The notes beneath the pieces are model-generated. The model worked only from the letters and a program-made list of their open reading frames with translations, ran no database searches and was not told where the DNA came from. A stretch of DNA of 64,000 bases from contig OX597826.1 in assembly GCA_951406725.2 (NCBI GenBank), forward strand, positions 38,626,001 through 38,690,000, written 5' to 3'. Of the stretch, positions 16,302-57,618 are shown in pieces. How positions within the stretch are numbered: the stretch's first letter is position 1; each line of letters opens with the position of its first letter. The translations under genes were made by a program, and so were the position numbers. This stretch comes from Octopus vulgaris (taxonomy: Eukaryota).

Positions 16302-16601
16302 GATAAAGGATTGAGGTAGCTCCTCCTGAAGATATAGAGTCAAAATTAAAGGAAGAGGAGAAATTTATTTTTTGAATCAGTTGAAGACATACAAGATGTC
16401 GAAACATCGTTCATTAGATAACAATGGCACTCTTCTTTTAATTTTGACTCTATATCTTCAGGAGGAGTTACCTCAATCCTTTATCTATTGACCAAAATGA
16501 AGTAGATTGACAAATTTATTTTTTGAACCGGTTGAAGACACACAAGATATTGAAAAATCGTTCACTAGATAACAATGACACTCTTCTTTTAATGTTGACT
16601 C
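16302..16601. repeat. 56-bp inverted repeat plus 90-bp direct duplication carrying hammerhead-like motifs
   Basis: IR 16302-16357 / 16430-16485 (near perfect); direct repeat 16361-16450 / 16512-16601. Confidence 0.85.
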
Positions 16602-17199
16602 ATTATTATTATTATTATTATTATTACTACTACTACTACTACTACTACTACTACTACTACTACTACTACTATTATTATTATTTGTGTTGGACATATATCA
16701 CATTAGCACCCAAAGGTTTGTTGAATTTTGTCAAAAAATAATTTGTTTACACTTGTTAATTTTTATTAAAAGTTTAGATAAGGTCCCCTACTTCACTCAA
16801 TAAACTAAAGAACCAGATTCAATGAGATGATAGCAAGAAAATTTCATACAATCATCAGTTACATAAGAGAGCAAATGTTTGAGAACAATGAAACAATGAT
16901 AATTGTTACAGCAATGTTTTTAACAACACAAGTGACAACAACAGTAGCAACAGTAAAAGTATTAAGAACAGCAACATAAATAATAGGGGCAACTCCACAG
17001 ATAGGCAATCTTTTGCTGGAATGGCAATGAAATTAACACAGTATTCTTGGCCCCCGAAACGGTGCACATTCTCTCCTGATGACCCCATAGACTTGCTGGC
17101 TTCCAGTATATGGAGCTTTTGACTGGTAGCACTTGTATGTGCAAGTTGTTTGTAAGACATCTTTGCTCTCTCTAAACAACAAGGAATTATACTTGACAC

Positions 17200-19660
17200 A
17201 AATGAAACAACTCATGAAGAGGAATAGCAGGATGGCACAAGTTGCCATCCCAATTGAGGTTTTGGCAGCAACTGCACAGAAGACAGTGGTGCATTGCTGT
17301 GTGTTGACTAAAACCCAATGCCTAGAAGCAATGACACATGTCCAGGTGGGAAAAGCCCTGAAAGAAATATTGACAGGTGTAAATCATGTGACCAGGGCAT
17401 AACAGCTTGGAAGTGTAGAGGTCTTCTTCAAGAGTGAAGCCCTAATTCTGAAGCACTCCATAGCTTCCATATGTAACAGGGAACTCACTCTCTAGCCAGT
17501 GTATTTAGTGAGAACCTGTTGTGCTAAAATAGAGAGTTCTGTTTAAGTTGGACATCTGGTGGTTGTTAGCCTGTGTTACTTTGGAAGGTAATGGCATCCT
17601 CCTCAACATCAAGTAAATGGAGAAGGAGTTTTGATCTGGGAACACAGTCAAGATACACCTCTAGATCAAACTGGTGAAGATGGAGAAGATGCCAGATCTT
17701 ACACACCTGCCAAATGGACTGGAGTTCATGTTGCAGTTGGAAGAAGGCCAAGATACCACTTATGCTATACAGAAGGCCACTTCAGAGCTTTCTTTTTTCA
17801 ACATAAATAATAGAGGAGAGGCCTTCAACTACTGCTAACACCACAGCCTCAACAACAACAATGTACTGCAGTAACATTAATAATGGAATGGATGGAAGCA
17901 CTCCGTCGGTTACGACGATGAGGGTTCCGGTTGATCCGATCAACGGAACAGCCTGCTCGTGAAATTAACGTGTAAGTGGCTGAGCACTCCACAGACACGT
18001 GTACCCTTAACGTAGTTCTCGGGGATATTCAGCGTGACACAGAGAGTGACAAGGCCGGCCCTTTGAAATACAGGTACAACAGAAATAGGAAGTAAGAGTG
18101 AGAGAAAGTTGTGGTGAAAGAGTACAGCAGGGATCACCACCATCCCTGCCAGAGCCTCATGGAGCTTTAGGTGTTTTCGCTCAATAAACACTCACAACGC
18201 CCGGTCTGGGAATCGAAACCGCGATCCCATGACCACGAGTCCGCTGCCCTAACCACTGGGCCATTGCGCCTCCACAACATTAATAATAATGAAGGGAAGA
18301 AGAACAATAGCAACAGTAACAACAGCAATAATGACATCTGGAATAAAAGAACCTAAACCCAGCACCAAGAAAATTCTCCAACCTAACTCCCTCTCTCCCC
18401 TTTTATTTAAACACACTCATGGGCACACACTGAAAACATACCTCCAACTGTTCCTGCACCAATATAGATATATTATCTTGTGAGGAAGAGGGACAACTGA
18501 GTAAATCAGATAAAGAACCACACAACCATGACAGCATCAATGAAACCATATCAAAACCAAACACAGACAAATCTACAAGTCCACCACCAAAACCCACTTC
18601 AACAAGAAAACACACACTGAGGAACAGACTAGTAAATAGAGAGACAAACCAACACAATGACAAAATGCACCCACCCCAAACTTTGTGCTGATAAGAAGCA
18701 CTAATAAAAAAAACTGATGTCCTTTGTCACAAGAAAAAGGAAAAGATTGAAACATAGGGAAAGGTCTTCAAGTTCAGCATTATTGACAATGCTGAACATG
18801 GCGATATACAAGACATTAAAGGACAATTTCCCTAACAAAATGGGAAGCCCAAGTGCAAGAGAGGAGAGTAGACTCCTAAAGTACTACCCAAAAGAATGTC
18901 AAAATTTCATAGAGACTCCAAGAAAGGAATCAGCTACTTACCTAGTTGGTAGTCTCCAGGATCATCAGTAGGATAAATAACTGTTTCCTTTTCTTCTCTT
19001 TATCGTTTAACCGAAATGGTGGTTTTGAGAGTGGTGTATATAAATGCATGTAGTCTGGAGTCACCCTGGAAACAAGGTGGCCTGCTCAGTGACCACAGAT
19101 AGCTAAATCTGGATGTGATAGCCATCAGAGAGACCAGGAATCCTGACAGACTCAGATTAGCAAACCGTTATTGACAATTTTCAGATCTTTGTATCTCTTA
19201 CTCAGCTGAGAATGGGGTGTCAGGGTGGCAGTGTTGTTTTGGAAATGCCAGAGCCTTGAGATACGGTCAATCTTCTTAGATCTGGAGTGTAAGTTGGTGG
19301 TACTAGACATGAACAATAGCAAAGGTGGTATTTTAAACTAGTTGACTTGTATACCCAGACTGGGTTAAACAGCTGGATTTCTTTAGGTGTCTGGAGCATT
19401 TCCTTAGAATGTCACATTCTTTAGTGATAGTGGGTGATTTGAATGCCACCTTAGATGCATGTCTAAATTATATGGGTCTAGCTGATAGAAGAATGGGGTG
19501 GGTGGGGGCATAGAAGCCACACAAACTAGTCCAGTTGTTTCCAACTGGCTGGACACGGGCAAACAGCATTGGATTATCCAGATTGCATCTAGACATAGTA
19601 TTCTGTAGGCCAGCAAATAGCATTGGTAGTTCACAATTCAAAGTGATTGGCTACACAGAT
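17200..19660 (+). mobile_element. Old L1/Tx1-like LINE remnant (ORF1-like region plus APE endonuclease), interrupted by SINE D
   Basis: 19030-19640 reads GCINACSL..., LNLDVIAIRET and IVGDLNATLD (APE motifs). The ORF1 assignment is tentative. Confidence 0.55.
17882..18273 (-). mobile_element. tRNA-derived SINE family D, young CpG-rich copy
   Basis: Minus-strand head GGAGGCGCAATGGCCCAGTGGTTAGGGCAGCGG...GGTTTCGATTCCC (boxes A and B), (TTCCA)n tail. Partial + copy at 33331-33500; related copy at about 2630-2830(-). Confidence 0.82.
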
Positions 19661-22012
19661 AACAGATTTGACTCTTGATATATTTCAACACTAAGCACAA
19701 ACATGCAGTGTTAGAGTTTCATTGGCTCTCCCAATTTATTATTCACCTAGAAGACTGACTGTTTTGTTTATTTATTTATCATTTGAGTGAACAGTCATTA
19801 GAGCATTGGGAAAAAAATGCCTAACTGTGGTTGTTTGACTCTTTCAGAGTTCAAATCCCACTAAGGTTAATGTTGTCTTTCACCCTTTCAAGGTCAATAA
19901 AATAAGTACCAGTTAAGCAATGAGGGTTAATGTAAATGACTTACACCCTCCCCATAATTGCTGGCCTTGTGCCAAAATTTGAAATCATCATCATCATTAT
20001 CATTATTATCATCATTATCATTACTATTATTATTGAGTGAGAGAGCAGTGCATGCCATCAAAGTGACACTAGGGTAAAATATATGAAGCCCAGTATACCC
20101 ATCATGACTACCTGTCTGATAAGGAAACACCAGGCACATGCATTACAACCATATGTGCGCGACATAGTGACCTCATATCACGATAAACAACACATAACCT
20201 TGCAGGTGAGCCCAGTTAGAAATTTTTTCAGGTTGAGTAGCCCACACCGCTCAAAAGGTTCCTGAATAGGGGTTGCTTAAGGACAATGGACAAAACACCT
20301 ATGTTTCCAAAGGTGAATTATTCAAACCCCAAAGAATTCCTCTCAACACATGGTTATGATGCTCCCCCACTACTTCTGCTTGTAATCAGAGATGCACATA
20401 TCATCAGCCAATAAGGGACATGCTCAACTGGTTAAAGCCAAGTCACTAACAAGCAAATCTGTGGTATTGAGCGGAATATGTACTGTAGTCCATTTTTTAT
20501 ACCAAGACAAAACAATGTACATGATAACACTTCCAATCAGTTAAGATGGTACTGCATCAGGGGGTTTACTATTATTATTATTATTATTATTATTATTATT
20601 CAGCTTAACAGTCGGAAGATTAGTATTAAGATGGTAGCAGGATACACCACTCCCACCCCTACTCCTTATACAAACTGAAAGGGACCCCACTACTGAACAA
20701 AAAATAATGCAAAAAACTGCTGCTAGAAAAAAAAAATTGAATTCTTCAGAAAAAAATTTATACATAACAGTCCCTCTCTCCTTTTCTTTCCTTTCATGCA
20801 CACACACACTGTCAAATATGGTATTTTAAAGTTTCCAATTAAATTATTTAGATAAGTGGGTCAGTAAGGGATCTAGTTACACAAGTGCTGGGTGGAGTTC
20901 TGTCATTTAGTTCCAAGTCACTTCTGATAGAGCAAAAATATGACAAAAAAAAAAAAGGCATTCAAGCTATTAATATCCCAGGGTATTTCAGATTACATCA
21001 ACTTAGTTTTAAAGTAGAGGAGTGTGATATGAGAGGGATTTTTAGTAGGTTGAGTGATGATTTAGAGGCTTTTTGTAAGGCAGTAAATTGGCAAGAGTTT
21101 GCCAGAATTATCATCAATTCTAACAATGCTTTGTGGTATTTGTTCTGGTCTTTGTTATTTCTCTGAAACCAATCCTGGTGCTGCCTACTTGAATGGCCAA
21201 ATATGCCAGCTGCAGAGTCATACAGTCTCTTTTAGATGAGTCCAGTTGTTCTCTGTGTCATCACCATTAAAGAATGTTTTGCTTAGTCTTTCAAAAATGG
21301 CTTCATAAAAGAATTATTTTCAAATGCTGATCATTTGAAATTCTTCATCCTCATCTCTCTTGGTGGTGGCATATTCTGCTACTAAATTTTAATGAACAAT
21401 GAGTCTATGATGAGTGCTGCAGTCAGCTCCACACATAAATCTGGCTAATCACACATCATTGTGATTGTCGGTTCTCACAATTATCTGGTCCAGAATAAGC
21501 CAGTGATTGGAATAAGGATGCACCCAAGACATCTTGCATCTTAGTGGTGGAAGCTTGTGTTGGTTATGAATTAGTAAGCACTACTAATAGCAAGTTATCT
21601 GCTGCATGGTTGAGTCATCAATAACAGAACTTGGAATCCCACCAAGTTTACTCGATGAGGATGGTAATTTTAGACATTATGCAGGATAATGAAAAGAGCA
21701 AAGGGAAGATGATCTGGTGGGTGGGAGAGTCCAATAGTATGCACAGATGCACATTAAATATGTATGTGTGGAGGAAGGTGGGGGGTGGGGTTGTAGTATG
21801 TTTTCATTTATTCATATGAAGCAAGGAAGAAATAAGTAACCTTCATCTTAACTTCAAAGTTGGCAGCAGCAGGCCAATAGTAACAACTGGTGCAGATGAT
21901 AACATACTGTCAAGCTAAGCTAGAAGCCATAATACAGAGCAAACATCTAGTGTATTTTTTTTTATGGTCTGGACTTACACCAAATCAGATAGTGCTGCAA
22001 GTTCATTATCAG

Positions 22013-57339: not shown

Positions 57340-57526
57340 TCATCTAAGGTCTAAGGAGAATAGCTCTTTTACCTTTTTACATTTAAAGTTTTACATTTTA
57401 GTTTTTGTTTTCATTTTCCGTTTTTTGTTTCCCCTTTTTTACTCCCTGTTTTCTATATGCTGCCTTCTCAGTTTTTTTGCATTTCTTCTATTATTCAAGT
57501 TTTTTTAGTTTGTTATGAAGTGGTTT

Positions 57527-57580
57527 GCACCTGAAGAATATGCTTGAGTATTTCTCAACATATGAAACTATTAGTAGCAC
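57527..57580 (+). ncRNA. Degenerate type-I hammerhead motif in an inverted-repeat arm
   Basis: GCAC-CUGAAGA-AUAUGcUUGAG(uauuu)CUCAACAUAU-GAAA-CUAUUAG-UA-GCAC; more decayed partner at 56400-56452(-). Confidence 0.62.
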
Positions 57581-57618
57581 TTAAATACATGTATTGTGCC
57601 CTTTAAATAAATACGTAT

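Follow-up and report, generated by a model that had tools for sequence, protein, structure and literature searches.

Hammerhead-bearing inverted repeats in a RhoGAP7 intron of Octopus vulgaris are very probably remnants of insertions by several families of Penelope-like elements

The window examined in this study, a 64,000-nucleotide stretch of the 2.8-Gb genome of Octopus vulgaris (contig OX597826.1, positions 38,626,001 to 38,690,000), contains six inverted repeats (IRs) associated with hammerhead ribozyme motifs, called here A to F. An earlier note on this DNA regarded them as a diverse set of ribozyme-tagged foldback retroelements devoid of open reading frames (ORFs). We consider it very probable that the foldbacks represent insertions, now decayed, from several families of Penelope-like elements (PLEs), the inverted half having likely been made during integration. 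All six IRs were recovered by self-BLAST: A at 16298-16489, B at 24153/24444, C at 37968-38148/43223-43404 (83% identity), D at 39779-39939/43044-43204 (91%), E at 40605-40769/42539-42701 (94%) and F at 56367-56627/57352-57613 (82%). Their placement in the introns of one gene could be narrowed to a single intron of about 48 kb, which is opened by a RhoGAP7 exon at 62829..62864 (minus strand; matching at 12 of 14 residues, E = 0.27) and closed by the RhoGAP7/DLC1-STARD13 exon at 14696..14767 (minus strand, by protein mapping), both with AG/GT ends. The RhoGAP7 protein of Octopus sinensis maps to window exons 62870-62829 and 14776-14696 and to one more exon about 17 kb past the window end, and the minus-strand exon at 1286-2494 is 99% identical to O. 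sinensis RhoGAP7. From the exon positions and the AG/GT ends it follows that the six features share this intron and that the pre-mRNA corresponds to the minus strand.

The sequence evidence identifies D, E and F as the 3' ends of Hydra-type PLEs. D has an inverted, 5'-truncated copy of the pseudo-long terminal repeat (pLTR) at 39746..39939 (minus strand, by family alignment), which carries a canonical type I hammerhead at 39829..39873 (minus strand; helix I of 4 bp, helix II of 6 bp, loop CAUAUG, GUU site). Its body at 39951..40495 (plus strand) was recognised by protein comparison as the broken Cys-linker and GIY-YIG end of a Hydra-type ORF, and its 3' untranslated region (UTR) and pLTR occupy 42685..43204 (plus strand), with a hammerhead at 43110-43154. 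Nested within D is E (40605..42455, minus strand), an internally deleted element with a broken Hydra-type ORF, pieces of which are the N-terminus (42459-42171), the start of the reverse transcriptase (RT; 42178-41834) and GIY-YIG (41698-41333); its 3' end (40769-40605) is without the CUGANGA half of the core. At its 5' end E has a pLTR copy in inverted orientation (42456..42705, plus strand, by IR and family alignment), which bears a hammerhead at 42474..42593 (plus strand, antisense to the host gene) with the core CUGACGA, a very short helix I, a 97-nt rod-like helix II (42483-42579) and the loop CAGCUG. F consists of an inverted copy at 56367..56893 (minus strand), in which a C-terminal GIY-YIG remnant and a hammerhead at 56448 without GAAA are found, and of a direct copy at 56895..57613 (plus strand), which has a canonical-core hammerhead with mismatched helix I (57527-57580) and is split at about 56981-57338 by one of the repeats that we take to be SINE-like (short interspersed element). 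The hinge of this hairpin (56893/56895) is the junction of two GIY-YIG-end copies.

The 30 best genome copies were fetched for each family alignment. RT or GIY-YIG sequence lies in sense upstream of the hammerhead in all three window elements, at 8 of 29 F loci and, among 28 D loci, at 3 more. The order of RT followed by C-terminal GIY-YIG is seen in window E and at F loci L126 and L147; for D, GIY-YIG only is present. The Hydra motifs RIRWR (with R in place of the K of RWK) and SDKT occur in window E and in an intact relative, the D and F copies being too short at the 5' end to reach RWK and DKT. A CxCx5C linker, together with a GIY-YIG domain without the CCHH cysteine pair, is shared by window E, D locus L019, F locus L126 and the intact ORF, and window D has lost the last Cys of this linker. 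The claim that the elements are ORF-less thus fails for D, E and F; A, B and C do look ORF-less, as far as Hydra-type probes in 1.5-kb flanks can show. Likewise, the six families are unrelated insofar as they have no detectable DNA similarity, blastn with seven probes giving no cross-family match, but D, E and F are related at the protein level. The link to the hammerheads of PLE pLTRs and the diversity of families, both proposed earlier, are supported. One GIY-YIG probe gave 16,784 first-look candidates in the genome; a protein search with a GIY-YIG piece returned one unnamed match, and the PLE fragments of the window matched no PLE model in Pfam. A young Hydra-type family was also observed (L253:1914-4778, L254, L255 and L258), whose near-intact ORFs reach 955-960 aa and have long Asn-rich inserts, with a 3' UTR of more than 1.4 kb and many near-identical GIY-YIG matches, and a weak Hydra-type GIY-YIG match at 29198-29383 (minus strand, E 0.008) is perhaps another decayed PLE.

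A, B and C are short and likely non-autonomous. A comprises a 151-nt unit and, in tandem with it, part of a second one, set between (TTA)n repeats (16358..16601, plus strand), and an inverted 5'-truncated copy with no hammerhead inside (16298..16357, minus strand, by IR and family alignment). Its hammerhead-like motif at 16373..16413 (plus strand, antisense to the host gene) has the core CAGUUGA (U4A, A6U) and, in this copy, a broken helix III palindrome; CTGAAGA words in the A arms (16326, 16461) are antisense sequence and were rejected as hammerheads. B is a 5'-truncated copy of a 352-354-nt unit (24153..24390, minus strand, by family alignment) joined to an inverted 5'-truncated copy (24387..24444, plus strand, by IR). 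The B hammerhead at 24317..24361 (minus strand, loop CUCGAG) is sense to the host pre-mRNA; G5A is added to the family core CCGAUGA (U4C) to give CCAAUGA, and to judge from this sequence the window copy is likely dead. Units in tandem, as expected of retrozyme-like elements, were indeed seen for A and B: one A array has 20 full units, one B array has five units at 352-nt spacing, and partial tandems occur at 9 of 17 A and 11 of 30 B loci. C, about 180 nt long, has nearly fixed ends and lies next to (TA)n; a solo copy follows (TA)n at 37968..38150 (plus strand; motif 38022-38057, core UUGCAGA), and a second C-type copy of another subfamily, with helix II broken, lies at 43223..43404 (minus strand), convergent with the first. 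As the two point inward, are 83% identical and belong to two subfamilies, the C pair likely represents two independent insertions paired by chance. C-type sequence is abundant, with four copies in the window and 13 matches in a genome sample of 60 arbitrary 10-kb regions (600 kb). The further C-type window copies are at 32222-32301 and 44074-44172, the latter with a canonical CUGAUGA core and a decayed 3' half at 44108. A C-like family with the core CUGACGA or CCGACGA and the loop ACGU (L253:1696, L268, L287, L293, L312, L320, L323) has 13 matches in the sample, mostly solo.

The shared hammerhead architecture holds for each of the six families at the family level, the majority sequences all having three helices and a palindromic helix III, and the palindromic loops named earlier were found as CAUAUG in D, CAGCUG in E and CUCGAG in B. 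The core CUGANGA...GAAA...UH is canonical in 31 of 34 D and 28 of 30 F copies, and also in E; non-canonical cores are in the majority in A (CAGUUGA, 21/24 copies), B (CCGAUGA, 22/30) and C (CUGUAGA, 22/32), where canonical CUGANGA is found in 0/24, 3/30 and 1/32 copies, respectively. Core variants U4C and C6 are described as retaining low activity (PMC3088659, the part on core variants). Most hammerhead copies of the window are damaged, and in A and B the motif sits in the IR spacer rather than in the arms. A strict window scan gave one canonical match (D at 39869) and a looser one four canonical cores, while Rfam reported D alone as a hammerhead, with 31.1 bits, short of the gathering score of 34; the other Rfam matches in the window, microsatellite matches to miRNA models, were discarded. 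A seventh hammerhead family, unnamed in the earlier note, has two copies that are 72% alike (31240-31355, minus strand, and 55175-55306, plus strand); their cores, at 31269 and 55277, are canonical, and helix III is palindromic.

That most long IRs of the window carry a hammerhead could not be upheld: in our own tally of non-simple self-BLAST rows (at least 50 nt, gap below 6 kb), hammerhead families account for 8 of 22, SINE-like pairs for 10 and others for 4. IRs without a hammerhead were seen at 3120-3372/4321-4566, 57619-57690/58421-58490, 57678-57878 and 11379-11421, and the arms of another (29914-30048/31025-31159, 82%) are without one and end 110 nt from the motif at 31269. The proposed enrichment near IRs was about 3-fold in the 600-kb sample, with 8 of 28 motifs at most 300 bp from a non-SINE IR (p = 0.003; such zones make up 9.4% of the sample, and 3 of the 8 motifs come from one locus), and was weak when all IRs, SINE-like pairs included, were counted (7/17, p = 0.05). 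The canonical-core descriptor exceeded shuffled sequence (10 shuffles) with 3 short-insert matches against 0-2 and 11 matches with 38-110-nt inserts against 0 in each shuffle, and a loose descriptor allowing two mismatches gave 39 against 10-15; a first relaxed descriptor, the low scores of which were not above shuffles (11 observed, 3-10 in shuffled DNA), was dropped.

The foldback form itself proved to be a minority arrangement and not, as had been claimed, the predominant one. Inverted partners no more than 1.5 kb away were detected at 6 of 28 D, 6 of 17 A, 13 of 30 B, 2 of 30 C, 3 of 18 E and 7 of 29 F loci, that is, at 37 of 152 loci (33 of 146 without the window's own), fractions that are rough because the best-scoring copies were used and longer foldbacks were missed; similarly, 20 of the 28 sampled motifs lie away from any non-SINE IR. 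All 37 partners are on the 5' side, and the length of the inverted arm differs from copy to copy, whereas a SINE-like control had six inverted partners on the 5' side and four on the 3' side among 30 loci. Low-complexity inverted matches were filtered (unfiltered, E has 7/18 with two on the 3' side, and F 8/29 with one), and duplicate loci L004, L017 and L139, 13 overlapping A array loci and 12 E loci matching the ORF and not the pLTR were left out. In C the ends are nearly fixed and just 2 of 30 loci are inverted. Among the first 100 genome matches with a CAGCUG loop and an 80-105-nt insert, ten same-family inverted pairs within 8 kb were identified by eye, all pointing outward. The families show a pLTR hammerhead located 3' of the ORF, 5' truncation to varying extents and flanking microsatellites, and TA or CA repeats follow many 3' ends in a genome with a high microsatellite background. 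These foldbacks are the published inverted 5'-truncated PLE insertion form and no separate element type: such an insertion is described in the account of insertion structures in PMC8557442, the same head-to-head arrangement in the pertinent section of PMC3846280, and dual minimal hammerheads on opposite strands, 100-700 bp apart, in that of PMC4209133. A sequence of events may be proposed in which the PLE RT/GIY-YIG protein would nick a microsatellite target, the RT would copy the RNA from its 3' end, often halting early, and in about a quarter of insertion events an inverted copy would be attached in head-to-head orientation. The site of ribozyme action would be the tandem transcript of the element itself, where it would work as a dimer formed via the palindromic helix III, and not host RNA. 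For annotation this matters, since the foldbacks would be listed as ordinary PLE insertion products, the ends of retroelements, and not as miniature inverted-repeat transposable elements (MITEs).

A distinct class of retrozyme-like foldback retroelements without ORFs, moving as hairpins, appears quite improbable to us. It would account for the failure to find an ORF in A, B and C, for the enrichment of motifs near IRs and for the arrays of A and B, which resemble the non-LTR retrozymes in the portions of PMC7229834 and bioRxiv 10.64898/2026.07.22.740005 that deal with them, but D, E and F have ORFs, the foldback is confined to 37 of 152 loci, the cores of A, B and C are off consensus, and the variation of arm length argues that the hairpin is not the transposing unit. 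Still less credible is the notion that the structures represent MITEs, or that abundant repeats came to lie in inverted pairs, and to match a hammerhead, by chance, even though the C pair is likely of this kind and shuffled DNA, too, yields matches to loose descriptors. The strict confinement of inverted partners to the 5' side, the remnants of ORFs, and counts of hammerhead patterns about 1000-fold over reversed controls (given below) contradict it, as do the 115 of 152 loci with no inverted partner within 1.5 kb and the variable arm lengths, incompatible with terminal inverted repeats of fixed length; for all families except C this explanation is refuted. Several observations nevertheless weigh against the attribution of the foldbacks to PLE insertions. 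Hydra-type probes applied to 1.5-kb flanks revealed no sense PLE ORF upstream at 17 A, 30 B and 30 C loci, and it is solely by their structure that these families point to a PLE origin. The ORF of E is linked to the pLTR in the window and in four of seven long regions (L181, L183, L186, L187), the remaining E pLTR loci having no linked ORF except L045. Lastly, the intact 955-aa ORF has no Pfam match, and the Hydra-type assignment comes from shared motifs and a by-eye comparison with a reference alignment.

An action of the elements on their host, by cleavage of the RhoGAP7 pre-mRNA or through arms serving as functional ADAR or Dicer substrates, is unlikely as well. The case for it includes the canonical D motif at 39829-39873, sense to the pre-mRNA, and very stable arm duplexes, the D arms reaching -236 kcal/mol compared with -8.7 for the fold of the D ribozyme and all arms ranging from -88 to -267. 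Heavy A-to-I editing is known in octopus. The motif at 39869 is the only clearly intact hammerhead in this orientation; in the remaining minus-strand copies the motif is damaged or halved (B with G5A on U4C, C at 43343 with helix II broken, E with half a core, F at 56448 without GAAA), and the seventh-family copy at 31269 joins a canonical core with a weak helix II. The D antisense arm would also be transcribed about 3 kb ahead of the sense hammerhead, and, with one clearly intact copy preceded by its antisense arm, self-cleavage of the pre-mRNA, as suggested in the earlier note, is judged unlikely. The passages on activity in PMC4209133 report weak cleavage by minimal PLE forms and none by a single minimal hammerhead, and those in PMC11167929 describe an anole PLE ribozyme that cleaves in vitro, is dispensable for insertion and leaves no read ends at its site. 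Assembled contigs of four read runs were compared with 37.5-41.05 kb; the run guessed to be RNA gave short contigs identical to the window, none spanning the D cut site by 31 letters on each side, but such contigs drop rare variants and say nothing on cleavage or editing. Long double-stranded RNA in the pre-mRNA is plausible on thermodynamic grounds, and would not be special to the hammerhead families, because IRs from SINE-like pairs are no less numerous: they make up 64 of the 152 IR rows of the sample when the 63 rows that are SINE-like by family label are counted (listed 46+24+18). In a read-through transcript of outward arms, the antisense arm would be made before the sense ribozyme and motif-bearing arms would mask the hammerhead. 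Whichever strand is transcribed, an outward foldback thus puts an antisense blocker in front of the ribozyme, and this geometry may be why foldback inserts are tolerated in introns.

Family E led to a second result, namely a hammerhead with an unusually long helix II, which is real as sequence and predicted structure and for which cleavage is only predicted. In E, CUGACGA is followed by 97 nt folding as one rod and then by GAAA-CAGCUG-UA; none of 200 shuffles folded as well as this insert (z -3.35), and a second long-helix fold had z -5.5. Exact genome patterns with CAGCUG number 3,214 with inserts of 80-105 nt, 2,646 with 50-79 nt and 2,447 with 8-37 nt, compared with 3, 3 and 2 in the respective reversed-pattern controls, and a second palindrome, CGAUCG, with 45-74-nt inserts, gave 4,079 matches versus 2. 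Scaling of the 11 long cores of the 600-kb sample leads to about 50,000 genome-wide (Poisson range about 26,000-92,000). In a covariation set of 18 hand-chosen, related sequences, from the window and 30 loci of the 80-105-nt search, 82% of cells are paired over the core-proximal 10 pairs of helix II and helices I and III (32-48% in slid controls), and the long class has 35 double changes, a number reached in 0 of 500 shuffles, the covariation being across families. Of 30 long-helix inserts folded, 20 have z of -2 or below. A full-length PLE, in which two 1.17-kb pLTRs, 99.7% identical, flank an ORF, has a hammerhead with an 85-nt insert in each pLTR, so that the long form goes with recent transposition. 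Many PLE hammerheads of this genome have helix II extended by a paired stretch of 40-105 nt, a feature likely under selection in the source elements. We propose, tentatively and at somewhat less than even confidence, that octopus PLEs carry an undescribed active hammerhead whose helix II is a 40-105-nt rod, that this is the commonest intact-core form, missed by Rfam and the usual descriptors, and that the rod is a conserved RNA handle stabilising a core with a helix I of just 2 bp or binding the RT of the element. The proposal is weakened by two pair-count covariation measures that were not above shuffles (74/500 and 429/500), by the 10 of 30 inserts with z weaker than -2, one of which forms no rod, and by a helix I of only 1-3 bp in the CAGCUG long class, that of E; helix I reaches 7-8 bp in several CGAUCG families, and the Hydra ORF was not found within 1.5 kb of 12 CGAUCG-loop loci. 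If long-helix hammerheads cleave, surveys limited to a short loop II would miss most intact hammerheads of the octopus genome, and 'half-core' PLE families may hold full ribozymes. With a very young full-length carrier known, the role of the PLE hammerhead becomes directly testable.

Our literature search, which covered hammerheads with a long helix II or loop II and hammerheads of octopus or other cephalopods but did not extend to Luense et al. 2017 (PLE hammerhead variants), turned up no description of the long-helix form; the 'long helix II' in the relevant part of PMC13725137 is of 6-8 bp. Among the closest known systems are the Hydra-clade PLEs with a C-terminal endonuclease (EN+), published by Craig et al. 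2021 (PMC8557442), which include Hydra-1_Obim of Octopus bimaculoides, an element with a short hammerhead. According to the sections of that paper on the Hydra clade, RW[K/R], DKT, CxCx5C, C-terminal GIY-YIG, microsatellite flanks and a 3' hammerhead are shared with the elements described here, as is the inverted 5'-truncated copy, given there for Penelope-13_HM; a small number of new families and Hydra loops II of at most 10 nt in those sections differ from what we saw in our octopus, namely 16,784 GIY-YIG candidates, ORFs that reach 955 aa and have Asn-rich inserts, and insertions in helix II of up to 85-105 nt. With the minimal type I hammerheads of metazoan PLEs (Cervera and de la Pena 2014, PMC4209133, as far as its descriptions of motif and arrangement go) ours share the palindromic helix III, the extra base after A9, the short helix I, the many families per genome and the opposite-strand pairs 100-700 bp apart, but helix II is of 6-8 bp and the core variant is U3-A8 there, whereas here the cores are U4C, A6U and U4A+A6U at family level and helix II forms rods of 40-105 nt. 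A (151 nt) and B (352-354 nt) resemble the non-LTR retrozymes, as characterised in the corresponding part of PMC7229834, in being apparently ORF-less tandem units with one hammerhead each, and differ in their minimal, core-deviant motifs (U4A+A6U, U4C) and PLE-type inverted 5' copies; a preprint, in the portion concerned, derives elements of non-LTR retrozyme type from pLTRs (bioRxiv 10.64898/2026.07.22.740005). The nearest precedents for the long helix II are the core halves 35-50 nt apart reported for the Naiad 'HHR_half_core' families, including Naiad_Ovul, and the 35-nt loop II of the spike-moss PLE-X1_sMoe, but the Naiad half cores are not read as structured ribozymes in those passages of PMC8557442, whereas the octopus insert, of up to 105 nt, is one rod accompanied by a perfect helix III palindrome.

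Other repeats were noted in passing. A family with the core UUGAAAA (U3-A8 covariation) and the palindrome CGCG occurs in tandem and inverted arrangement at L282:96 and L285:8667 and 9029. In the window, the minus strand contains an LTR-retrotransposon RT/RNase H remnant at 22585-22992 (Pfam PF17919, E 1e-20) and an open frame at 13291-13707 with no Pfam match, which resembles a piece of a Tc1/mariner transposase. Non-LTR retrotransposon remnants, which in our judgement have an R4-like look, lie on the plus strand at 5071-6137 (RVT_1 at 5730-6134, E 2e-4) and 31356-31676.

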